A stretch of DNA of 64,000 nt from an uncultured Gemmatimonadaceae bacterium (GTDB lineage: Bacteria; Gemmatimonadota; Gemmatimonadetes; Gemmatimonadales; Gemmatimonadaceae). Each line of letters starts with the position of its first letter. Positions within the stretch are counted from its first letter, which is position 1. Positions 3,590-63,550 of this stretch are shown in pieces. Where the stretch lies: NCBI GenBank assembly GCA_963817955.1, contig CAWFQK010000001.1:416001-480000 (forward strand). The letters are read 5' to 3'. Both the position numbers and the translations under genes were made by a program. Below the pieces are notes generated by a model that saw only the letters and a list, made by a program, of their open reading frames with translations, had not been told where the DNA came from and ran no database searches.

Positions 3590-3693
3590 ACTGGTGGTTG
3601 GTGGTTGGTGGTGGTGGTGGTGGTGGTGGTGGTGGTGGTGGTGGTGGTGGTGGTGGTGGTGGTGGTGGTGGTGGTGGTGGTGGTGGTGGTTGG
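3590..3693. repeat. (GGT)n trinucleotide tract with TGGTGGT heptamers at its edges
   Basis: Directly visible; lies just upstream of the treS start. Confidence 0.9.
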
Positions 3694-4557: not shown

Positions 4558-4650
4558 AAACTCACCACGCACAACTCACCACTGGACAACTCGAAACTCG
4601 CCGACCGGTGGGCCGACCAGTACGGAGCAGCCAGCGACATCCAGCCGGCT
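4558..4650 (+). repeat. R element copy 1 (right half only), preceded by GACACGG heptamers (4527-4557)
   Basis: AACTCACCACTGG..CTCGAAACTCGCCGACCGGTGGGCCGACC..TACGGAGCAGCCAGCGACATCCAGCCGG matches the other copies. Confidence 0.92.
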
Positions 4651-4652
4651 CA

Positions 4653-4718
4653 CAGAGATCCTTCGCTTGCTCAGGATGACAGGCATCCAGGATGACAGGC
4701 CTTCGCTCAGGATGACAG
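4653..4718. repeat. REP-like cluster (GATCCTTCGC..GCTCAGGATGAC family)
   Basis: Three CAGGATGACAGG units; same family at 19520, 27116, 31749 and 60644. Confidence 0.88.
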
Positions 4719-4739
4719 GCATCGCGGGTGATCGGTGAT

Positions 4740-4980
4740 CAGTTGTGAGTTGTGAGTTGTGAGTTGTCAGTATACGGGTCATGCGCACCAGGGTGCCTGG
4801 CTCGCCGGCCACTATCGCCGGTCGGCGAGGTTCGGGTGTCCAGTTGTGAGTCGTGAGTTGTGAGTTTTTAACAACGCGTAACGCATAACTCATCACTGGC
4901 AACTCGGAACTCGCCGACCGGTGGGCCGACCACTACGGAGCAGCCAGCGACATCCAGCCGGTCAGAACCCGGAGTCCAAC
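4740..4980 (+). repeat. R element copy 2 (full length)
   Basis: Heptamer leader, GTATACGGG..CCAGGGTGCCTGG..CACTATCG module, CCGGTCGGCGAG/CTCGCCGACCGG hairpin, right module ending CCGGAGTCCAA. Confidence 0.95.
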
Positions 4981-5035
4981 GCGCGCCTCACGATCGTTCC
5001 TCCCATCGGCGAGTTTCCCGTCTTGCGTTTGCGCA

Positions 5036-9706: not shown

Positions 9707-9749
9707 TGACCTTCGCGCATGGTGTAGCAGGGGTGGCGTCAACCGGGCT

Positions 9750-9940
9750 TGGACTCCGGGTTGTTGACCGGCTGGATGTCGCTGGCTGCTCCGTAGCGGT
9801 CGGCCCACCGGTCGGCGAGGTTCGAGTTGCCAGTGATGAGTGATGCGTTGCGCGTTGTTAAAAACTCACAACTCACAACGCACAACTGGACACCCGAACC
9901 TCGCCGACCGGCGATAGTGGTCAGCGTGCCAGGCGCCCGG
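9750..9940 (-). repeat. R element copy 3 (inverted, left end truncated), followed by TAACGCG heptamers (9959-9987)
   Basis: Reverse complement of copy 2, downstream of the thrA stop. Confidence 0.93.
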
Positions 9941-10054
9941 CGGTAGAAGCCCAACTGGTAACGCATAACGCGTAACGCGTAACGCGGTGCCCCGTGTCCC
10001 CAACATTTGTAAGGATCATGTACGAGCGCGGCCCATCCGTCGTATCTTTTCCCG

Positions 10055-25677: not shown

Positions 25678-26472
25678 TCAGATGGCCGGCGGCGGTGTCG
25701 GAGCCGGTGTTGGGGTTGGAGCCGGTGTTGGCGTTGGAGCCGGTGTTGGCGTTGGAGCCGGTGTTGGCGTTGGAGCCGGTGTTGGCGTTGGAGCCGGTGT
25801 TGGCGTTGGAGCCGGTGTGTCAGGCACGTTTGGTCTCACCGTCGTCGTCGGCGGCTTCTTTACGATGTTCCACTCGTTGAGCAGGTCCTCGTTGTCCTTC
25901 AGGTCGACCTTGACCAGCGCGTCGAGCACGAGGACGGTGCGTCGAGCGGCGACGAGCTGCGATCGGAGACTCTTGGTCGCACCCCCTTTAGCGCCGCGGG
26001 TGGCCGAACGCTGGTCGATAGACGCGATCATGTCGGCCGCGGCCTGCCGAAGGCGGTCGGCGAAGTCTGTCGTCAACCCCGCTTCGATGAACACCGGCGC
26101 GTGCTGTGCCGCCACGTCGGCCATGCCGATGGCCATACTGTTCAACTGTTCCGCCGTCGCGTTCGTGCGCGGCATCTTGAGCGCAGACAGCTCGGGCGTG
26201 TGCGGCAGGTCAGCCGCGGCAATGCGACTGATCGGCGACATGTGGTCCTGCAGCAGCGTCTTGCGCAACGCGTATTGCTTGGCGGTGAGGCCGCGCGCAG
26301 CCTGGGTTCCGCCGGCCTGCGTTCCCGCGTGTCCCTCGAGCTGGACAAGCCTCGCTTTGAGCTTTCCGCGCGACCCCGCCACCGCGGCGACGGGAAGCTT
26401 GTCCGCGTTCGCGTCGATGAAGTCGTCGACGGCGCGGAGGGACTTGATGGTGTTGCCCTGTCTGATTTGCAT
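25678..26472 (-). CDS. Alpha-helical hypothetical protein with a (TPAPTP)n tail
   Basis: 264-aa ORF with AGAGG RBS; tail encoded by an 18-bp tandem repeat. Confidence 0.8.
25700..25818. repeat. 18-bp coding tandem repeat GGAGCCGGTGTTGGCGTT, ~6.5 copies
   Basis: Directly visible. Confidence 0.95.
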
Positions 26473-31789: not shown

Positions 31790-32056
31790 GGGTGATCAGT
31801 GATGAGTTGTCAGTTGTCAGTTGTCAGTTGTCAGTTGTCAGTGTACAGGTCATGTGCACCAGGGCGCCTGGCTCGCAGGCCACTATCGCCGGTCGGCGAG
31901 TTTCGGGTGTCCAGTTGTGAGTTGTGAGTTGTGAGTTGCTAAAAACGCATAACGCATCACTCACAACTGGCAACTCGAAACTCGCCGACCGGTGGGCCGA
32001 CAGCTACGGAGCAGCCAGCGACATCCAGCCGGTCAACACCCAGAGTCCAATCCCCG
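31790..32056 (+). repeat. R element copy 4 (full), followed by TGTCCCG heptamers (32106-32152)
   Basis: All three modules present; lies between convergent genes. Confidence 0.95.
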
Positions 32057-32151
32057 CTGCGCCGACCGGTGCGAGAAGGCACGCATGCTCGAAAACCCGA
32101 AGTCGTTGTCCCGTGTCCCGTTGTCCCGTGTCCGTGCTCGTGTCCCGTGTC

Positions 32152-39229: not shown

Positions 39230-39308
39230 CGGGGGGGGGGGGGGGGAGGGGGGGGGGGAGGCGGGACGGCGGGACGGCGGGACGGCGGGACGGCGGGTGA
39301 GGTAATCC

Positions 39309-39640
39309 GTTGTGAGTTGTCAGTTGTCAGTTGTGAGTATACGGGTCATGCGCACCAGGGCGCCTGGCTTCGCGGGCCACTATCGCCGGTCGGCGAGGTT
39401 CGGGTGTCCAGTTGTGAGTTGTGAGTTGTGAGTTTTTAACAACGCGCAACGCATAACTCACAACTGGCAACTCGAAACTCGCCGACCGGTGGGCCGACCG
39501 CTACGGAGCAGCCAGCGACATCCAGCCGGTCAACACCCGGAGCTCAATCCACGGCCTCACGATCGGCTGCGCCGGTGGGCCGACCGCTACGGAGCAGCCA
39601 GCGACATCCAGCCGGTCAACACCCGGAGTCCAATCCCCGC
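39309..39640 (+). repeat. R element copy 6 (full) with tandemly duplicated right module (39571-39640)
   Basis: CCGGTGGGCCGACC..CAACACCCGGAG occurs twice; preceded by poly-G and GGGACGGC octamers. Confidence 0.95.
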
Positions 39641-39772
39641 CTCGCGATTCCCCGCCCCCCAATCGGCCAACACTCGGAGCGCCCAATCCGGCTTGCGCTG
39701 GTCGGCGATAGGCATATAATTTCACAATAGATCGATAAGATCGGGTAAGATACCTCAAATCGCTGACTCAGC

Positions 39773-40993
39773 ATGAATCCGCTAAACAACCCGTTCTCAC
39801 CCGGAGCCGGCGCCCCTCCGCCCGAGCTCGCTGGTCGTGACGAAATCGTCAACGCCGCGACGATCGCTCTTCACCGTATCCGCGCAGGACGACCGGAAAA
39901 GAGTCAGCTGCTCCTCGGCCTTCGCGGCGTCGGAAAGACGGTCTTGTTGAACCGGATCGCCACCATCGCTGAAGAGACGGGCCATCTCGTCGTCCAATTC
40001 GAAGCACCGGAGGGGCAGAAGCTGGCCGAGTATCTCGCGCCGGCACTGAAAAGCGTCCTCCTCCGACTCAGCCGCGTCGAACGGGCGAAAGACTATGCCG
40101 CCCGCGCCATGGGCGCGCTGAGAGGGTTTGCAAGCGTGTTCAAGGTTTCCATCGGCGAGGTCGGGTTCGGCGTCGCCGAGCCGCAAACCGCCGACAGCGG
40201 CAACATCGAGTTTGATCTTCCTGAGTTACTGATCGCGACAGCGCAAGCGGCGAAAGCCGCGGACACAAGCGTCGCCGTCTTCGTCGATGAGGTCCAATAC
40301 CTGTCGGAGGAGGACCTCCGTGCACTGATCGTTGCGCTGCATCGCGTCGCGCAAAAGGGCTTACCTCTCGTCCTCTTTGGCGCCGGGCTTCCGCAGGTAG
40401 CCGCTCTCGCCGGAGAGGCGAAGTCTTACGCCGAACGGCTGTTCGACTATCCGGAAATCGGCCCTCTCGTTCCTTCGGCGGCAGAGCGTGCGGTACGGGA
40501 ACCCGTCCGCTCTGAAGGGGCGGACATTGACGCTGGAGCACTGCACGGGATCGTCGAGGTGACCCAAGGCTATCCGTACTTTCTGCAGGAATGGGGTAAG
40601 CACGCCTGGAACACTGCGCCACGATCGCCGATCACCGCGGCGGATGTCGAAATGGCCAGCAGGTCTGCGACCGACGCCTTGGACAAGAATTTCTTCCGAG
40701 TCCGGTTCGATAGGCTCACTCCGCGCGAACAGGATTATCTGCGGGCGATGGCGGACCTCGGCCCAGGCCCCCACCGGTCCGGGGCGATCGCTGAGAAGCT
40801 CGGGGCGGCGGTGGAGAACCTCGGTCCGCTGCGGAGCGGCCTCATAAAAAGGGGTATGATTTGGAGCCCGTCACACGGCAACACCGCCTTTACTGTACCC
40901 ATGTTCGACGCGTTCATGCGACGCGCGATCCCAGTTTGGCAGGCACCAGCCGCGCCCAAGCGCCGGGGGGGGACTGTGACCAGTGGTCAGTGA
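39773..40993 (+). CDS. AAA-family ATP-binding protein with wHTH (ATPase-2)
   Basis: NPFSPGAG..ELAGR, GLRGVGKT, VDEVQ, GAGLP, SYAERLF, GYPYFLQ, FTVPMF. Confidence 0.9.
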   Translation: MNPLNNPFSPGAGAPPPELAGRDEIVNAATIALHRIRAGRPEKSQLLLGLRGVGKTVLLNRIATIAEETGHLVVQFEAPEGQKLAEYLAPALKSVLLRLSRVERAKDYAARAMGALRGFASVFKVSIGEVGFGVAEPQTADSGNIEFDLPELLIATAQAAKAADTSVAVFVDEVQYLSEEDLRALIVALHRVAQKGLPLVLFGAGLPQVAALAGEAKSYAERLFDYPEIGPLVPSAAERAVREPVRSEGADIDAGALHGIVEVTQGYPYFLQEWGKHAWNTAPRSPITAADVEMASRSATDALDKNFFRVRFDRLTPREQDYLRAMADLGPGPHRSGAIAEKLGAAVENLGPLRSGLIKRGMIWSPSHGNTAFTVPMFDAFMRRAIPVWQAPAAPKRRGGTVTSGQ

Positions 40994-41250
40994 CCAGTGG
41001 TGAGTTGTGAGTTGTGAGTTGTGAGTTGTGAGTGTACGGGGCATGCGCACCAGGGCGCCTGGCATGCAGGCCACTATCGCCGGTCGGCGAGGTTCGGGTG
41101 TCCAGTTGTGAGTTGTGAGTTGTGAGTTTTTAACAACGCGCAACGCATAACTCACAACTGGCAACTCGAAACTCGCCGACCGGTGGGCCGACCGCTACGG
41201 AGCAGCCAGCGACATCCAGCCGGTCGATACCCGGAGCTCCAATCCCCGCC
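40976..41250 (+). repeat. R element copy 7 (full)
   Basis: Between convergent ATPase-2 and tsdA-like genes; its leader supplies the ATPase stop codon. Confidence 0.95.
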
Positions 41251-41259
41251 GGTCCGCGA

Positions 41260-42297
41260 TCAGCACCCGCTCTCGGCAATAATTTCACGCCTAGCTGTAC
41301 GGTACGCCGCATCGGGCGGAGCATCCCCTTTCGGCCAATCCAGCTCCTTCCCGACAAAATCAGGCCGTGGCTTCGACACGATAAAAGCCGCCACGTCGAA
41401 CGCCTCGCCGGGGGCGAGCGTGCCCGGCCGGTTGAATGGCATGCTGGCCTGGATGAACGCTGCTGCCGTGCGCACTCGCGCCATGCCTGCGCCAATATTG
41501 AACGATTGCCCTCCCCAGAGCGGCGTCGCGATCGTCGTTCCCTCGCCATTCGCGCCATGGCAGGCCGCACAATTGAGCGCAAATACCGCTCGGCCACGCG
41601 CGGTATCCGGCGGGGTTGCTGGGGCATTTACCTTCAGCGCCTGGGTGCCGTCGTTGCGGACCAGCGGCGAGGGGCGTGAGAGGTAGGCCATGTACGCGAC
41701 CAGGTCGCGCATCTCGCGGCTGGTATCCGGGAGCGCGCGACCGTTCATGCTGCGACGAAGGCAGCCGTTCACACGATCCGCCATCGTCAGAATCTTGCCC
41801 TCACGCGGGCGATACTGCGGAAAGCGCGCGTAGACCCCCAGCCAGGGGATGGCGCCCGTCCGCGTGCCGCCGTCGAGATGACAACTGGAGCAGCGGAGCG
41901 TATTGCCCGTGTAGCCGGGCAAGCTATCGCGCGTTGCGTCGGCAATGGCACGACCCCGAAGAACGGCCGCGCGAACCTGGGGAGCCAGCTCGACGTTACC
42001 GGGAATGGAGAAGGCCGCAGGCGGCTCCACGATCGAGCGCTCCGTCGCGGTAAGCGACTGGTGCTGCACGTAGCGCGTGACGGCGAGCACACTGGCGAGC
42101 GCGGCACCAGCGCCGACCGTCGCCACAATGCGCGGCTTCGCTCGGCGGCCGATACGCTGGCTGATGGCCTGCATGGGCCGAGCGATCATTGGCCCGATCA
42201 GGAAGAGAAGCAGGATCGTGAGCCACGCCAGACCCGCGGCGCAGAGCACGAGGCCGAGCCCAATTGCCAGAATGCCAAGCGGTCCGTGAGTTTCCAT
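41260..42297 (-). CDS. tsdA: Diheme c-type cytochrome, thiosulfate dehydrogenase TsdA-like
   Basis: CSSCH and CAACH, RVNGCLRRSMNG (Cys ligand), PLWG..SFNIGAGMAR; N-terminal TM anchor. Confidence 0.8.
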   Translation of the reverse strand: METHGPLGILAIGLGLVLCAAGLAWLTILLLFLIGPMIARPMQAISQRIGRRAKPRIVATVGAGAALASVLAVTRYVQHQSLTATERSIVEPPAAFSIPGNVELAPQVRAAVLRGRAIADATRDSLPGYTGNTLRCSSCHLDGGTRTGAIPWLGVYARFPQYRPREGKILTMADRVNGCLRRSMNGRALPDTSREMRDLVAYMAYLSRPSPLVRNDGTQALKVNAPATPPDTARGRAVFALNCAACHGANGEGTTIATPLWGGQSFNIGAGMARVRTAAAFIQASMPFNRPGTLAPGEAFDVAAFIVSKPRPDFVGKELDWPKGDAPPDAAYRTARREIIAESGC

Positions 42298-52904: not shown

Positions 52905-53155
52905 GTGATCAGTTTTCAGTTTTCAGTGGTGAGTGGTGAGTATACGGGGCCTGCGCACCAGGGTGCCTGGCGCGCAGGCCACTATCGCCGGTCGGCGAGG
53001 TTCGGGTGTCCAGTTGTGCGTTGTGAGCTGTGAGTTTTAAAAACGCGCAACGCATAACACACTACTGGCAACTCGAACCTCGCCGACCGGCGGGCCAACC
53101 GCTACGGAGCAGCCAGCGACATCCAGCCGGAATAGAGCCCGGAGTCCAATCCACG
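52905..53155 (+). repeat. R element copy 8 (full)
   Basis: All three modules present. Confidence 0.94.
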
Positions 53156-53179
53156 CCTGCGCCAGTCGGCGATCGAGCC

Positions 53180-54756: not shown

Positions 54757-54887
54757 GCCGCCTGATCTTCGCATGGTGGCCGGGCGTGCCCCCAGGCTGA
54801 TGGGACGTGCTCGTTGGCGCTACTCGCGAAGCCAAAGCCCGAGCCGAGCCGAGCCGAGCCGAGCCGAGCCGAGCCGAGCCGCGGGTG

Positions 54888-55135
54888 GTTGTGATCAGTT
54901 TCCAGTGGTGAGTTGTGAGTATACGGGGCATGCGCACCAGGGTGCCTGGCGCGGAGACCACTATCGCCGGTCGGCGAGGTTGCGGGTGTCCAGTTGTGCG
55001 TTGTGAGTGGTGAGTTTTTGAAACGCGCAACGCATAACTCACCACTGGAAACTCGAACCTCGCCGACCGGTGGGCCGACCGGTACGGAGCAGCCAGCGAC
55101 ATCCAGCCAGTCAACACCCGGAGCCCAATCCCCGC
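54888..55135 (+). repeat. R element copy 9 (full), preceded by GAGCC pentamers (54841-54880)
   Basis: All three modules present. Confidence 0.94.
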
Positions 55136-55235
55136 CTGCGCCAGTCCGCTCTAAAGGTCGAACCTGGAACCCTTTGACCGATCGTGGGCGAGTGGTACAT
55201 TCCCTCTAAGGGAATATTCCACTGAGGATCTGCGA

Positions 55236-55569: not shown

Positions 55570-55857
55570 ATGGCACGTAAGCAATCATTCCTCAACGCAG
55601 TTTGGACCGAGCAGTTCAAGGAGAGCTACGCAGCGATTCAAGCGAACGAGCAGAAGTCCGCTGACAAGGTCTCGTTCGCGATCATGAAGGGCGAGGTGAC
55701 TCCCGGCATGCGGGTCAAGCCAATCGAGCCGGAGAAGTATTTCAACGAGGCGCGGCTGGACGATGGGGACCGCCTCGTTCATCGGATACAAGAGGGCACG
55801 GTCTACTTCGTTGACATCGTGCCTCACGATCAGATCAACAAGTACGGTAGACGCTGA
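55570..55857 (+). CDS. RelE-like toxin
   Basis: WTEQFKESY..PGMRVKPI..EARL..DRLV..DIVPHD; GAGG RBS. Confidence 0.75.
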   Translation: MARKQSFLNAVWTEQFKESYAAIQANEQKSADKVSFAIMKGEVTPGMRVKPIEPEKYFNEARLDDGDRLVHRIQEGTVYFVDIVPHDQINKYGRR

Positions 55858-55884
55858 GTAGTGCGCCTCAGCCGCGCCGCGGGG

Positions 55885-56054
55885 TGACTGTGGTCAGTGA
55901 CCAGTTGTCAGTTGTCAGTTGTCAGTGGTCAGTGGTCAGTGGTCAGTATACGGGTCATGGGCACCAGGGCGCCTGGCTCGCAGGCCACTATCGCCGGTCG
56001 GCGAGGTTCGGGTGTCCAGTTGTGAGTTGTGAGCTGTGAGTTTCTAAAAACGCG
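55885..56054 (+). repeat. R element copy 10, left half (ends at hairpin apex)
   Basis: Leader, left module and left arm, ending GAGTTTCTAAAAACGCG. Confidence 0.94.
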
Positions 56055-56056
56055 GT

Positions 56057-56224
56057 ACAAACCGGTCTGATAGGTGAGCAACAAACCGGTCTGATAGGTG
56101 AGCAACAAACCGGTCTGATAGGTGAGCAACAAACCGGGCTGATAGGTGAGCAACAAACCGGGCTGATAGGTGAGCAACAAACCGGGCTGATAGGTGAGCA
56201 AACAGACCGGGCTGATAGGTGAGC
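56057..56224. repeat. 24-bp tandem array ACAAACCGG(T/G)CTGATAGGTGAGCA x7
   Basis: Three T-type units, three G-type units, one degenerate unit; no spacers. Confidence 0.96.
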
Positions 56225-56299
56225 TTGGGTGAGACAGCCTGGACCGGCCGGAAACGGTACGATGCTGCGACCTAGACTGCGGCCGCGCAGCTTTTGCAC

Positions 56300-56677
56300 A
56301 TGCAGGATTTTCGCCGGCTCAAAGTATGGGACAAGGCTGTCGCTCTGGCGCTCGGAGTCCGAAGGGCTACGACGCGGTTTCCAAAGCAGGGCTATTCGGA
56401 ACTGAAAGCGCAGCTGGTCTCGGCTGCCGAATCGGTGGGCAACAACATCGTCGAGGGTTGCGGCGCGAGCACGCAGAAAGAATTCGCGCGCTTTCTGGAA
56501 ATGTCCGTGAAGTCCGCGATGGAGCTCGAGGGCGAACTGGAGCTGGCGTACCGGTACGACGTGCTGCAGGAACGCGACCGGCGCGCCCTTGGCGCAATGA
56601 CAGTCGAGACGCGCCGAATGCTCTGCGGTCTGCGGAACAAGGTGCTGAGCACCACCGGTGAGACCCCACCCCGTTAA
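56300..56677 (+). CDS. Four-helix-bundle protein (23S rRNA IVS protein / Avd-like family)
   Basis: MQDFRRLKVWDKA..FP..L..QL..AA.SV..NIVEG.G..T.KEF.RFL..S..S..E signature. Confidence 0.92.
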   Translation: MQDFRRLKVWDKAVALALGVRRATTRFPKQGYSELKAQLVSAAESVGNNIVEGCGASTQKEFARFLEMSVKSAMELEGELELAYRYDVLQERDRRALGAMTVETRRMLCGLRNKVLSTTGETPPR

Positions 56678-56790
56678 CACTCACAACGCACAACTCACAA
56701 CTGGAAACTCGAACCTCGCCGACCGGTGGGCCGCCCGCTACGGAGCAGCCAGCGACATCCAGCCGGCCAACACCCGGAGCCCAATCCACG
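56678..56790 (+). repeat. R element copy 10, right half
   Basis: Starts immediately after the four-helix-bundle stop codon: ACTCACAACGCACAACTCACAACTGG..CTCGCCGACCGG plus right module. Confidence 0.95.
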
Positions 56791-56820
56791 CCTTCGCCGG
56801 TCCGCGATCACTCAGCCGGA

Positions 56821-57843
56821 CTACGGCAATTTCGTGCCTACCGTGCGGTACGCCGCATCGGGCGGAGCATCCCCTTTCGGCCAATCGAGTTCCTTCCCGA
56901 CAAAATCCGGACGTGGCTTCGACACGATATATGCCGCCACGTCGAACGCTTCGCCGGGCGCGAGTGTGCCCGGTCGGTTGAATGGCATGCTGGCCTGGAT
57001 GAACGCCGCCGCGGTGCGCAGTCGAGCCATGCCTGCGCCGACATTGAACGAGGAAGCCCCCCATAGCGGCGTTGCGATCGTCGTCCCCTCCCCATTCGCG
57101 CCGTGGCAGGCTGCACAATTGAGCGCAAACACTGCTCGGCCCCGCGCGGTATCAGGCGGGCTTGCCGGGGCATTCACCTTCAGCGCCTGGGTGCCGTCGT
57201 TGCGGACTTGCGCCGAGGGGCGTGAGAGGTACGCCATGTAGGCGACCAGGTCGCGCATCTCGCGGCTGTTCTCCGGGAGCGCGCGACCGTTCATGCTGCG
57301 ACGAAGGCAGCCGTTCACGCGATCGGCCATCGTCAAAATCTTGCCCTCGCGGGCGCGATACTGCGGAAAGCGCGCATAGACTCCCAGCCAGGGGATCGCG
57401 CCATTTCGCATGCCGCCGTCGAGATGACAACTCGAGCAGCGGAGCACGTTGCCCGTGTAGCCGGGCAAACTGTCTCGCGTTGCGTCGGCAATGGCGCGAC
57501 CCCGGAGGACGGCCGCGCGAACCTGGGGGGTCAACTCGACGTTATTTGGGATCGAGAAGGCCGTGGGAGACTCCACAATCGAGGGCTCCGTCGCGACCAA
57601 CGACTCGTGCTGTACGAAGCGCGTGACGGCGAGCACACTGGCGAGCGCGGCGCCCGCGCCGACGGTTGCCAATATGCGCCGCTTCGTTCGGCGGCCGATA
57701 CGCTGGCTGATGGCCTGCACGGGCCGGGCGATCATGGGCCCGATCAGGAAGAGAAGCACGAACGTGAGCCACGCCAGACCCGCGATGCATAGCACGAGGC
57801 CGAGCGCAATCGCCAGAATGCCAAGCGGTCCGTGAGTTTCCAT
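56821..57843 (-). CDS. tsdA: TsdA-like diheme cytochrome c, second copy
   Basis: Same motifs as 41260-42297, with many scattered substitutions. Confidence 0.8.
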   Translation of the reverse strand: METHGPLGILAIALGLVLCIAGLAWLTFVLLFLIGPMIARPVQAISQRIGRRTKRRILATVGAGAALASVLAVTRFVQHESLVATEPSIVESPTAFSIPNNVELTPQVRAAVLRGRAIADATRDSLPGYTGNVLRCSSCHLDGGMRNGAIPWLGVYARFPQYRAREGKILTMADRVNGCLRRSMNGRALPENSREMRDLVAYMAYLSRPSAQVRNDGTQALKVNAPASPPDTARGRAVFALNCAACHGANGEGTTIATPLWGASSFNVGAGMARLRTAAAFIQASMPFNRPGTLAPGEAFDVAAYIVSKPRPDFVGKELDWPKGDAPPDAAYRTVGTKLP

Positions 57844-57878
57844 ACGGCTCTAGTGTTCCAGAACTGGCTTCGAGGCAA

Positions 57879-60415: not shown

Positions 60416-60643
60416 GGTGTCAGTGGTGAGGTGTGAGTGGTGAGTTGTGAGTATACAGGCCCTGTGCACCAGGGTGCCTGGCTCGCAGGCTACTATCGCC
60501 GGTCGGCGAGGTTCGGGTGTCCAGTTGTGCGTTGTGAGTGGTGCGTTGTAAAAACGCGCAACGCATAACTCATCACTGGAAACTCGAACCTCGCCGACCG
60601 GTGGGCCGACCGGTACGGAGCAGCCAGCGACATCCAGCCGGTC
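60410..60643 (+). repeat. R element copy 11 (full), joined to a REP unit at 60644-60678
   Basis: Ends CCAGCCGGTC-CACAGAGATTCTTCGCTTCGCTCAGAATGACAGG. Confidence 0.95.
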
Positions 60644-60664
60644 CACAGAGATTCTTCGCTTCGC

Positions 60665-62119
60665 TCAGAATGACAGGCCTTTGCAGTGAGTCAGGTCTGC
60701 GCTGGTGAACCCAAGGACGTCACCCGAGGCGATTGCGGCTGCCACGCCATGCGACCATGCATCGTTGCCGGAGAAGAGGGCGAAGTGCACGCGGTGCACT
60801 GGTTGACCGGCCGGCAGATCGGTGAGGAGCAGTTTTGCGCGCGCGCGAAGCGTGTCGAGGTCGGGATCATCGACCCTGCCCCATTTGCATTCGCCGACGA
60901 GGATGTCTCCGTCCAGTCCGACGGCGACGATGTCGATTTCGTTCCGTGAGTCCGCGTCCCACCAGGCCCCGACCCTGCTGGGCTTGAATGGGAGTTTGGT
61001 GGTGCGGCCTACCCAAGCGCGGCAGATGTCCTCGAAGGGGGCACCCATGTAGTCGTCGAGTCGCGGTGCAATACGCTGCTGCCACAGTTGCTCTGGCGCA
61101 ACGAGGCTGATCTCGCCGGTGGCGATGAGGGGGGCAACGAACCGGTGCCAGAAGGCAACGTACGGATCGTTAATTCGATACAGCGTGCGTTTGGAGTGCT
61201 GCGGGCTCGTCTCTGTGATGGGGACCATGCGGGCCACGACCTGCATCTCTTCGAGCCAACGCATTGGACGAGAGAGGGAACCGCTGCCCTTCCCCAGCCT
61301 GCTCGTGATCTTGCTCCACGTGCGCTCTCCGTTCGCGATGGCCTGGATGATCGAATAATGGATGTCCGCGTCCCCACCCCCGCGAAAGGCGTCAAGCATG
61401 TGCTGCGCCTCGTCGAACAGGCGTCCGGCCGGGGTGAGCATCTGTCGCATCACGTTCGCTGCGAGCCCCCGCTCGGGGTCGAGGAGGGCGAGGTGCCCCG
61501 GCAAGCCGCCGAAGATGCTGAAGGTGATGAGGCGTTCCCGAGCGGTGTACCCCGGGACGAAGGCGCCGACGTATTCGTGGGTGAATGGCGGGAAGATGAG
61601 CCGTCCGGTTCGGCGACCGTACAGCGGCTGATCCGCCTGCTCCAAACGCTGCATTGCCGAGATGTGCGACCCGTTGAGGACTAGCTTGAGGCGGGTCTCG
61701 GGCCAGTGGTGGTCCCACTCCGATTGAATGATCGAGGGTAGTGATGGCGCGGCCGCTGCCAGGTATGGGAACTCGTCGAGGATGAGGAGGAGCGGGGCAC
61801 CGGCAGCTCGGTCTGTGAGGTATTGGAAGAGGCTCTCCCAATCCGGAAGCGCCACCCCACGAAGTAGCGCCGCATCATCAAAATGGCTCCCAATAATCCG
61901 GCTGAGGGCCGCGAGCTGCTCAGTCTCCGTGCGGTTGGTGGCCTGGTAATAGATTCCGCCCACGGACTTCGCGAATCGAGTCAGGACCCAGCTCTTGCCC
62001 GCGCGCCGACGTCCAACGCCGAAGATGAGATCGGGGGCAGCTCGGTTCCAGATCTCGTTGAGTTCCTGCCACTGGGCATCTCGGTCGATGATGTCAGCAG
62101 GCTTTATTGGTCGAGGCAT
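60665..62119 (-). CDS. ATPase-3, second copy
   Basis: Near-identical to 43547-44983; stop codon supplied by the REP unit. Confidence 0.9.
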   Translation of the reverse strand: MPRPIKPADIIDRDAQWQELNEIWNRAAPDLIFGVGRRRAGKSWVLTRFAKSVGGIYYQATNRTETEQLAALSRIIGSHFDDAALLRGVALPDWESLFQYLTDRAAGAPLLLILDEFPYLAAAAPSLPSIIQSEWDHHWPETRLKLVLNGSHISAMQRLEQADQPLYGRRTGRLIFPPFTHEYVGAFVPGYTARERLITFSIFGGLPGHLALLDPERGLAANVMRQMLTPAGRLFDEAQHMLDAFRGGGDADIHYSIIQAIANGERTWSKITSRLGKGSGSLSRPMRWLEEMQVVARMVPITETSPQHSKRTLYRINDPYVAFWHRFVAPLIATGEISLVAPEQLWQQRIAPRLDDYMGAPFEDICRAWVGRTTKLPFKPSRVGAWWDADSRNEIDIVAVGLDGDILVGECKWGRVDDPDLDTLRARAKLLLTDLPAGQPVHRVHFALFSGNDAWSHGVAAAIASGDVLGFTSADLTHCKGLSF

Positions 62120-62202
62120 GGTTGCATCCGATGCGTCATCGCTATTGTTGCAGCACTACAACTTGTATGCTTACAACATAGATGCTGCTCCGGCGCGAGA
62201 CA

Positions 62203-63216
62203 ATCGCTGAAGAGAAGGGCCATCTCGTCGTCCAACTCGAAGCACCAGAGGGGCAGAAGCTGGCGGAGTATCTCGCGCCGGCACTGAAAAGCGTCCTCCT
62301 CCGACTCAGCCGCGTCGAACAGGCGAAAGACTACGCCACCCGCGCCATGGGCGCGCTGAGAGGCTTTGCAAGCGTGTTCAAGGTTTCAATCGGCGAGGTC
62401 GGGTTCGGCGTCGCCGAGCCGCCAACCGCCGACAGCGGCAACATCGAGTTTGATCTTCCCGAGTTACTCATCGCGACAGCGCAAGCGGCGAAAGCCGCGG
62501 ACACAAGCGTCGCCGTCTTCGTCGATGAGGTCCAATACCTGTCGGAGGAAGACCTCCGTGCACTGATCGTTGCGCTGCATCGCGTCGCGCAAAAGGGCTT
62601 ACCTCTCGTCCTCTTTGGCGCCGGGCTTCCGCAGGTAGCCGCTCTTGCCGGAGAGGCGAAGTCTTACGCCGAACGGCTGTTCGACTATCCGGAAGTCGGC
62701 CCTCTCGATCCTTCGGCGGCAGAGCGTGCGGTACGGGAACCCGTCCGCTCTGAAGGGGCGGACATTGACGCTGGAGCACTGCACGAGATCGTCGAGGTAA
62801 CCCAAGGCTATCCGTACTTCCTGCAGGAATGGGGTAAGCATGCCTGGAACACTGCGCCACGATCTCCAATCACCGCGGAGGATGTCGAAATGGCCAGCAG
62901 GTCTGCGACCGACGCATTGGACAAGAACTTCTTCCGAGTCCGGTTCGACAGGCTCACTCCGCGCGAACAGGATTATCTGCGGGCGATGGCGGACCTCGGC
63001 CCAGGACCGCACCGGTCCGGGGCGATCGCTGAGAAGCTCGGGGCGGCCGTGGAGAACCTCGGTCCGCTGCGGAGCGGCCTCATAAAAAAGGGTATGATTT
63101 GGAGCCCGTCGCACGGCAATACGGCCTTTACTGTACCCATGTTCGACGCGTTCATGCGACGCGCGATCCCGGTTTGGCAGGCACCAGCCGCACCCAAGCG
63201 CCGGGGGGGACTGTGA
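62203..63216 (+). pseudogene. 5'-truncated second copy of ATPase-2 (no Walker A)
   Basis: Match to 39965 begins at ATCGCTGAAGAG, fused to the ATPase-3 promoter region. Confidence 0.88.
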
Positions 63217-63417
63217 CCAGTGGTGCGTTGTCAGTTGTCAGTTGTCAGTTGTGAGTTGTGAGTTGTGAGTGTACGGGGCATGCGCACCAGGGCGCCTGGC
63301 ATGCAGGCCACTATCGCCGGTCGGCGAGGTTCGGGTGTCCAGTTGTGAGTTGTGAGTTATGAGTTTCTAAAAACGCATAACTCACAAATGGCAACTCGAA
63401 ACTCGCCGACCGGTGGG
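63212..63417 (+). repeat. R element copy 12 (right module missing)
   Basis: Leader, left module and full hairpin; stops after CCGGTGGG. Confidence 0.93.
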
Positions 63418-63550
63418 GCGACTTCTGAGCTGTCTGACAGCCCGCAGCCGTTGGCTCTCCGTTCACACTTCGCCACCCCGTCCAAGCGCCGCGGCTTGCA
63501 GCGCGGTGATCTTCCGGGCGGCGACCGTGACGCGAGGAAGCGCCACTCCG

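Follow-up and report, generated by a model that had tools for sequence, protein, structure and literature searches.

One copy of a dispersed hairpin repeat, here termed R, harbours an intact gene in a 64,000-nucleotide stretch of DNA from an uncultured Gemmatimonadaceae bacterium (GenBank assembly GCA_963817955.1, contig CAWFQK010000001.1, forward-strand positions 416,001 to 480,000; hereafter the window). This R copy, at positions 55885-56808 of the window, is split about 10 nt or less from its apex by a 620-bp insert, and the gene within the insert encodes a four-helix-bundle protein of the family PF05635/TIGR02436. The locus belongs to a widespread and apparently undescribed class of genes in hairpins, which is related to the intervening sequences (IVSs) of ribosomal RNA (rRNA). 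The interpretation favoured here, and judged moderately probable, is that it is a gene-in-hairpin cassette of the type known from 23S rRNA IVSs that bear an open reading frame (ORF), with its stem supplied by the two halves of R.

Three sets of observations carry this interpretation: the anatomy of the split copy, the presence of comparable loci elsewhere in the same genome (G000; 4.53 Mb, 94% complete, in which the window is C1:416001-480000), and the recurrence of the same layout in other genomes.

Anatomy of the split R copy

Alignment of eight full R copies with both halves of the split copy, together with a search of the genome with an R profile of 309 positions, places the break at the R loop. 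The left half (55885-56054, plus strand) matches profile positions 9-181 with 171.8 bits, and the right half (56674-56808, plus strand) matches positions 168-302 with 105.6 bits and begins at the stop codon of the gene. The left half opens with a heptamer run (GTGGTCA/GTTGTCA, 55890-55947) and a unique core, TATACGGG...CACTATCG. Its stem then extends from CCGGTCGGCGAGG to 3.6 copies of AGTTGTG at 56018-56042 and continues through the loop TTTCTAAAA up to ...ACGCG, the 3' end of the half reading ...GAGTTTCTAAAAACGCG at 56054. The right half carries 3.4 copies of the complementary heptamer ACTCACA (56679-56702), the right stem, ...CTCGCCGACCGG, and a tail to ...CCCGGAGCCCAATCC. TTAAC-like letters are present to either side of the break, so the joint cannot be placed with single-base accuracy.

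Between the halves lie a relic of the left end (left inverted repeat) of an IS481-like insertion sequence (IS; 56055-56239, plus strand), a 60-nt leader (56240-56299, plus strand) with a GATG about 39 nt upstream of the start codon, and the gene itself (56300-56677, plus strand), which runs from an ATG at 56300 to a TAA at 56675-56677 and encodes 125 amino acids. The relic starts with GGTACAAACCGG, continues with an amplified 24-bp unit and ends in TTGGGTGAGACAGCC. The two arms of R can pair over 48 bp at 92%. Folding of the 926 nt from 55885 to 56810 yields, in the minimum free energy and the centroid structure alike, a single long stem that joins the R halves and leaves the cargo as a loop (-402.6 kcal/mol; z -4.84 relative to 20 shuffles). 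A first-pass annotation of the window had described an R copy split at its apical loop, a complete TIGR02436 gene, a right arm starting at the gene end, and arms that could pair and loop the gene out, and all of this is borne out. The locus has the layout of the wider class described below: a PF05635 ORF between inverted tandem heptamers, with the downstream arm at the stop codon and, when the IS relic is left aside, a 60-nt leader.

At the position of the split R, a paralogous block elsewhere in the window has an unbroken copy. This gene-less positional paralogue (40983-41262, plus strand; a full copy included in the alignment) and the split copy share homology that extends 1.19 kb rightward: its right half and about 1.05 kb downstream, which includes a SoxA/TsdA-type cytochrome c gene, align to 56674-57856 at 88%. 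Identity of the right arm was also considered as a sign that cargo and right arm had moved together. It proved uninformative, the right half being 91.5% identical to the sister-copy arm (see below) and to the positional paralogue alike.

A scan of 55700-57000 for sigma-70 promoters returned no sites. Among public sequencing runs none of RNA was listed for this DNA, and two soil-metagenome DNA runs of one study (shares 0.09 and 0.07) yielded short contig pieces only, including an exact 159-nt piece equal to 56522-56680. None of these contigs bridges or skips the cargo, so they are silent on any polymorphism between filled and empty states.

Related loci in the same genome

The genome contains five PF05635 genes, four of which have flanking inverted repeats of 48-122 bp at 92-97%. 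The closest relative of the window gene, the sister copy, is at C4:1553151-1553525 between two inverted R right halves, whose arms pair over 118 bp at 96.6%. The proteins of the two copies are 95% identical, and the DNA is 93.7% identical over 590 bp that comprise part of the relic, the leader, the gene and the right half. Through GTTAAC, and with a single mismatch, the left arm of the sister copy is the reverse complement of the right one; the two arms are homotypic, which sets them apart from those of gene-less R copies.

The sister copy is flanked by genes for a GT2 glycosyltransferase and a class-V aminotransferase. When 18 same-genus regions upstream of the orthologous aminotransferase gene were fetched, three had kept the adjacency to the glycosyltransferase. 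In these three genomes, 70-155 bp separate the flanking genes, with neither R nor a helix-bundle gene, compared with 840 bp in G000. Relative to these kin, the sister copy with its arms is an insertion. The two R-armed gene copies differ by 8 synonymous and 6 non-synonymous changes (non-synonymous divergence, pN, 0.021; synonymous divergence, pS, 0.084), and this excess of synonymous change indicates purifying selection on the gene.

Two further paralogues are enclosed by arms unrelated to R. One, at C4:1054669, lies between 122-bp arms (95%) of a repeat family called S, and the other, at C4:1616850, between 110-bp arms (92%) of a family called T. The fifth PF05635 gene (C2:824631) has no arms. 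Family S also occurs as seven gene-less inverted pairs and about seven solo units, and family T as at least six gene-less pairs. The arms of S are heterotypic in gene-less copies and homotypic in the filled copy. There are accordingly three gene lineages, each inside its own hairpin-repeat family, and each arm type also exists in gene-less copies. The pattern of the split copy in the window is therefore not a one-off.

Recurrence in other genomes

Of 61 genomes of the bacterial family, 52 contain PF05635 genes, a tally that includes one unpublished genome, G073. Sixty of the first 75 listed matches were fetched, and 58 of them, from 31 other genomes, were testable; the 15 dropped matches comprised 11 that were less than 4 kb from a contig start, three from G073 and one from G000. 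Each locus was scored by the best inverted repeat between its 450-bp flanks, and windows displaced by 2-3 kb, which are mostly coding sequence and thus a crude control, were scored alongside. Inverted repeats of at least 40 bits were present at 41 of 58 loci and in none of 229 displaced windows; at 30 bits or more, the counts were 46 of 58 and 1 of 229.

The arms at these loci are mostly tandem heptamers. Tandem repeats occur upstream at 37 of 58 loci, and 34 of 42 upstream arrays have a period of 7. Tandem units matched by their reverse complement on the other side were found at 24 of 58 loci (1 of 225 controls). The leader is typically 60-130 nt long, and the arm downstream is placed at the stop codon or over it. 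All six of the nearest same-genus homologues (54-67% identity) are enclosed, with scores of 54-262 bits, and several of them have in common the inner motif GACTGATGGACCNCGACRG, as does family S. In all of the three other genera tested, the arm also occurs dispersed through its own genome, with 35, 64 and 20 matches and many close inverted pairs. When the unique modules of R were sought around the 58 loci, heptamer runs were the sole matches. The arms of the 41 enclosed loci had 63 versus 47 G.U-compatible mismatches on the two strands, an asymmetry not considered significant.

The layout extends to cyanobacterial plasmids. A tblastn search of plasmids matched 27 records, of which six cyanobacterial ones were examined. 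Four of their six loci have inverted arrays of at least 40 bits, built of GGTGACA, TAGGGTG, TAGGGAG or a GGGAA-type unit; one of the remaining two has a short inverted pair, and the other has a downstream array only, beside a transposase gene. The plasmid genes are placed between cas6/cas4, cmr2/cmr3, parA/parB and ribonucleotide reductase genes. On this sequence evidence, stem enclosure is the rule across the bacterial family, and it is also seen in cyanobacterial plasmids.

In a sublineage made up of loci L092, L093, L096 and L097 together with C4:1054440-1055145, each of the two arms carries at its loop-side end an inverted motif, GACTGA(T/G)GGACCNCGAC(A/G)G. The motif sits within otherwise unrelated outer arms, and in gene-less S copies it is found on the left side only. 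It looks like the terminal repeats of the cassette proper.

The R repeat family

R is a repeat of about 280 nt. Counting non-overlapping matches to the profile over the whole genome gave 141 matches: 28 full hairpins, 85 right halves (73 of them complete), 17 left halves and 11 fragments. The halves always end at the loop, between TTTTT and AAAA. Besides the 28 hairpins in left-right order there are about 13 inverted doublets in right-left order, as well as inward- or outward-facing pairs of right halves. Because the right half also occurs in these other arrangements, it is the basic unit of R, consisting of a heptamer run, stem and tail, and the left half is a diverged inverse of it. The unit stands alone 73 times, in most cases immediately 3' of a gene in the same orientation. 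Heptamer arrays are common in this genome, with 383 tandem arrays of period 7 against 155 of period 6; merging gives 354 heptamer arrays, of which 188 are within 60 nt of an R match. No Rfam family matched the window at gathering thresholds, so R is not a described RNA family.

Nine of the 28 full hairpins lie in the window besides the split copy, and, as the first-pass annotation had stated, none contains a gene. The copy at 39289-39568 (plus strand) serves as reference and is followed by an 86-bp tandem duplicate of its tail. That at 54870-55149 (plus) is 1 kb upstream of the split copy, directly after an AAA_16 ATPase gene, and that at 4721-5000 (plus) is preceded by a solo right half at 4558-4668. 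Alignment and profile both support the copies at 31792-32071, 52909-53169, 60420-60680 and 63220-63473 (all plus), the last with a diverged tail. The copy at 9746-9976 is on the minus strand (profile match C1:425746-425976), and the positional paralogue at 40983-41262 completes the set.

R units also stand around other sequences. In the region C4:1083478-1084348, inward-facing R right halves surround a PEMT/ICMT-type methyltransferase gene, with inverted (GTGTCCC)n/(GGGACAC)n arrays inside the arms, and at C1:149523-153388 they surround alpha/beta hydrolase, PAP2 and YceI-like genes. A repeat family of about 550-720 bp without a convincing ORF lies between R units, with the tails inward, at all five of its places (C4:198217-198759, C4:1576967-1577651, C2:333843-334565, C2:811482-812155 and C1:329776-330489). 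Low-complexity tandem repeats of 1.2-2 kb that are open in several frames (e.g., RDGMRSRRDGMRS...) are found between inverted R copies at C4:765525-767506, C4:1120116-1122031 and C5:23617-24786.

The IS481-like relic and the 24-bp array

The genome contains an IS481-like IS of 1376 bp in four nearly identical intact copies, which encode a 435-aa transposase with LZ_Tnp_IS481 and rve domains (C9:169795-171170, C4:242691-244063, C4:905446-906823 and C5:39591-40966). All four interrupt R where its first heptamer run ends, at one and the same profile position (62-76). A truncated fifth copy (C2:413899-413950) abuts an R loop, beside a gene fragment. The left end of the IS consists of GGTACAAACCGG, two 24-bp-spaced copies of CCGG(T/G)CTGATAGGTGAGC, and then TTGGTGAGACAGCC. 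Both ends of the IS carry two 24-bp-spaced copies of this 18-nt motif.

The cargo of the split R copy starts with the exact IS left-end sequence. A tandem-repeat scan found 7.0 copies of a 24-bp unit at 56057-56224 with 97% matches, compared with one copy in the sister cassette and two in the intact IS. A genome-wide search for CCGG(T/G)CTGATAGGTGAGC with up to three mismatches gave 33 matches: 26 close ones, confined to the four intact IS copies, the two cassettes and one truncated IS, and seven scattered singles with two or three mismatches. The array of seven 24-bp units noted in the first-pass annotation is thus real, but it is evidently an amplified IS481-like left end and not part of the gene system.

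These findings also admit the view that the 620-bp cargo is itself an IS passenger, that is, a non-autonomous IS481-like derivative made of a left end and a captured gene, and that the IS transposase put it into R. Its place at the apex would then reflect a preference of the IS for the ends of heptamer runs and would say nothing of a hairpin-gene system. Both cassettes do begin with the IS left end at the same base, every intact IS copy is in R with the truncated one at an R loop, and the last 10 nt of the sister cargo (CAGCCCGTTA) are identical to part of the IS right end. The right edge, however, does not fit. A non-autonomous IS481-type element should have both terminal inverted repeats of its parent, and the cargo has the left end and no convincing right one. 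The 9-10 nt shared with the IS right end at the right edge of the cargo score 15-20, which random genome windows also reach (mean 14.4, 95th percentile 18, 99.9th percentile 25), and this match was rejected as evidence; the transposase-binding motif is not on the right side of the cargo. Moreover, the two other enclosed paralogues and 41 of 58 loci elsewhere are enclosed by stems without such an IS end. Once the relic is removed, the 60-nt leader with its GATG at -39 and the gene show the usual layout of the class. The passenger explanation is therefore considered unlikely.

The four-helix-bundle protein

The 125-aa ORF matches PF05635 (E 6.8e-25, 87.8 bits, cut-off 33.8) and TIGR02436 (E 2.5e-24, 85.6 bits, cut-off 24). 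All six invariant columns of an alignment of 35 sequences are kept (Q38, N49, E52, G53, S72 and E75); an S...N..EG core motif of the family is reported in the accessible part of PMC3936711. By sequence similarity only, the nearest solved relatives are 2gsc (E 2e-8) and 2rld, each deposited with five chains. PADLOC gave no match for the protein.

Across 63 PF05635 leaders (the 58 family loci and the five genes of this genome), GATG is present in 44, compared with 90 of 228 control windows, and 22 of 61 occurrences peak 31-40 nt upstream of the start codon. It may serve either as a -10-like element of a promoter or as a motif in the RNA. As a relative of the nucleic-acid-binding protein Avd and of the pentameric XCC0516, the protein is inferred to act on hairpin or heptamer nucleic acid.

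Relation to known systems

The closest parallel is with the ORF-bearing IVSs in 23S rRNA of Coxiella burnetii and Leptospira, which likewise have a PF05635/S23p ORF in a stem loop and adjacent tandem heptamers, and which are also suspected to be mobile by a mechanism as yet unknown (PMC4990558, in part). In Coxiella, RNase III excises the IVS, whose terminal stem measures 28 bp and whose S23p ORF is preceded by tandem heptamers in varying number. That the IVS ORF might serve mobility is an idea of Ralph and McClelland (1993), as cited there, who are also the source for Leptospira. The ORF in the window is likewise enclosed by terminal inverted repeats that form a stem. Unlike an IVS, it is not placed in a 23S rRNA helix: the window holds no Rfam family, the cassette lies among protein-coding genes, and its arms are the halves of a 280-nt repeat with about 140 copies.

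The arrangement of R itself recalls other repeats. Repetitive extragenic palindromic (REP) sequences and bacterial interspersed mosaic elements (BIMEs) are palindromic units scattered between genes, either single or as inverted doublets, with a bias towards the 3' ends of genes. In systems of REP doublets forming hairpins (REPINs) and REP-associated tyrosine transposases (RAYTs), a gene is flanked by inverted units of its own repeat family. R resembles REP/BIME in its singlets, inverted doublets and bias to gene 3' ends, and by this analogy it is a species-restricted REP/BIME-like family. The several pairs of a gene and a repeat family in this genome (R, S and T) resemble a RAYT gene with its own REPIN units. 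Unlike in that system, the flanked gene encodes a four-helix bundle without a known nuclease fold, and the units are longer (about 110-130 nt) and partly made of tandem heptamers. No match to the Y1 (RAYT) transposase PF01797 was found in the genome, although control genomes were detected. The RAYT/REPIN analogy drawn in the first-pass annotation therefore holds for the layout and for the missing Y1 transposase, but R behaves like REP/BIME at gene 3' ends.

Heptamer repeats have been described before. The convergent heptameric repeats of Xanthomonas and Nostoc are intergenic and capable of forming stem-loops, with 70 pairs in Xanthomonas campestris pv. campestris (PMC4692102); in its accessible part, that report treats them as G-quadruplex repeats and does not mention the PF05635 protein family. 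The same silence on PF05635 is found in the accessible part of PMC4679880, which also concerns heptamer repeats. The arrays described here differ from those of PMC4692102, as far as its accessible part goes, in being parts of larger units and in surrounding PF05635 genes. Stand-alone PF05635 genes have been reported, without explanation, from cas loci and rRNA insertions of candidate phyla radiation (CPR) bacteria (PMC3936711; bioRxiv 2024.02.27.582315; both in part). Within the literature searched, which included few subscription journals and no supplements, no link was found between PF05635/S23p genes outside rRNA and inverted heptamer arrays or gene-less hairpins.

Relics and MITEs (miniature transposable elements with inverted repeats) of the IS481 family provide a further comparison. 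The left 185 bp of the cargo are the left end of the resident IS481-like element. Unlike such MITEs, R has no IS ends and the cargo has no convincing right end.

Weighing the interpretations

Several observations weigh against the cassette interpretation. Some suggest that R has an RNA role of its own. R is intergenic, and 56 of 77 solo right halves are 3' of a co-oriented long ORF. Its stems have 65 G.U-compatible mismatches on the plus strand and 9 on the other, and in 17 of 19 full copies the better RNA fold is that of the plus strand; the copies share ancestry, so that these counts are not independent. Others concern the tie between gene and repeat. Two of the five TIGR02436 genes of this genome are within R arms, but they are copies of one cassette, a single independent event, and they account for 2 of 141 R matches. 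R arms also enclose the PEMT/ICMT-type gene (C4:1083597-1084242) and the three-gene block, and a rough estimate puts the chance expectation for genes flanked by inward-facing R halves at about one per genome. R was not found in 24 same-genus genomes, where heptamer runs were the sole matches, and it appears to be confined to one species among those searched; co-inheritance of R with the gene can therefore not be shown. The conserved centre of gene-less S copies, about 100 nt long, has no relation to the cargo, so these empty copies are not simple deletion products. Between genomes, pairs of loci with like heptamer units have a median protein identity of 40.2% (25 pairs), compared with 39.5% for 456 other pairs, which speaks against recognition of one heptamer by one protein and against gene and arms always travelling together. 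The cargo also begins exactly with an IS end, and could thus have been delivered by the IS.

A final difficulty concerns excision. No RNase III gene was found in this genome, at 94% completeness, with PF14622, PF00636 and TIGR02191. PF00636 likewise gave no match in 12 relatives from the same order, among them several of 99-100% completeness, although the RNase III models detected 8-9 of the control genomes. The order Gemmatimonadales may thus lack a classical RNase III. The rRNA-IVS excision model, to which the first-pass annotation had likened the locus, does not transfer in simple form, and IVS-style RNA excision is not assumed here.

Much of this could be accommodated if the locus were an ordinary small host gene, for instance a regulator, that happens to lie between REP-like elements at RNA 3' ends, the upstream unit belonging to the toxin gene and no partnership existing. 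The 3' bias of the solo right halves, the strand-biased mismatches and the other genes flanked by R units all agree with such an account, as do the full R copies of the window that directly follow paralogous AAA_16 genes and have been copied along with them. Nevertheless, a single R, broken at its loop, supplies both pieces that flank the gene, and the paralogous block has an unbroken R there. By our own estimate, chance alone would place two of five such genes between inward-facing units with a probability of about 0.002. Enclosure recurs with unrelated arms in this genome, in the family and in cyanobacteria, and the filled copies have near-perfect homotypic arms, unlike the gene-less ones. 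An ordinary gene among terminator-like repeats is for these reasons thought improbable, about as much so as an IS passenger.

A degenerate diversity-generating retroelement (DGR), of which the gene would be the leftover Avd accessory gene, is highly improbable: PF05635 resembles Avd (PMC10053308, in part), but the gene here stands alone inside a hairpin, and the single reverse transcriptase (RVT_1) match of the genome, at C4:732178, is separated by over 300 kb from each of the five genes and lies on a contig other than that of the split R (template and variable repeats were not sought).

The cassette interpretation thus remains the favoured one. The hairpin-encased element with empty counterparts that the first-pass annotation had postulated is retained in so far as there is a stem-enclosed unit with abundant gene-less copies of the same arms, whereas its co-inheritance with R cannot be shown and R flanks other genes too. 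A possible history begins with a cassette that occupies the tips of hairpin repeats already in place, or moved into them. Later, an IS481-like IS with a preference for the ends of heptamer runs would have landed between the left arm and the leader. It would then have been deleted down to its left end, with expansion of its 24-bp unit to seven copies. As a speculation, the near-perfect homotypic arms of filled copies might have arisen when one arm was copied from the other, for example by strand switching.

Genomic surroundings

The split-R cassette has a toxin-antitoxin pair on one side and a cytochrome c gene on the other. It lies in an accessory island with duplicated blocks (window 37900-64000), which contains three AAA_16 ATPase genes and an ORF without a Pfam match (62182-63213), with a full R directly after each. 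The island also contains three HipA-type modules, two Fic/DUF4172 genes with 98-99% identical DNA, two DUF234 ATPases, two SoxA/TsdA-type cytochrome c genes and one MazE-like pair. Tandem repeats in the window include the 86-bp duplication of an R tail (39486-39648), a (TGG)32 tract (3592-3690) and 6.6 copies of an 18-bp unit (25700-25818).

Significance

PF05635/TIGR02436 is a very large family without an assigned function, and the abundant heptamer repeats of bacteria are likewise unexplained. The locus described here and its relatives show that PF05635 genes and heptamer repeats belong together. A single genome in which three paralogues are each paired with a dispersed family of gene-less hairpins gives this association added value, and the clean IS relic explains the 24-bp array.

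A more far-reaching and rather doubtful possibility, suggested by analogy, is that PF05635 proteins are trans-acting partners of dispersed hairpins, equivalent to RAYTs but without a known nuclease or transposase fold. Each lineage would sit inside its own hairpin family and maintain or spread the gene-less members, and heptamer repeats and rRNA IVSs would be instances of the same class. If the protein does act on hairpins, these cassettes would constitute a class of mobile or self-maintaining elements without a recognisable transposase. The long-standing proposal of Ralph and McClelland (1993, cited in PMC4990558) that the ORF of an IVS serves the mobility of its element gains defined cognate and non-cognate substrates. 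Should PF05635 proteins prove to be such partners, this genome would lend itself naturally to tests, with its R, S and T pairs and its roughly 140 R substrates.

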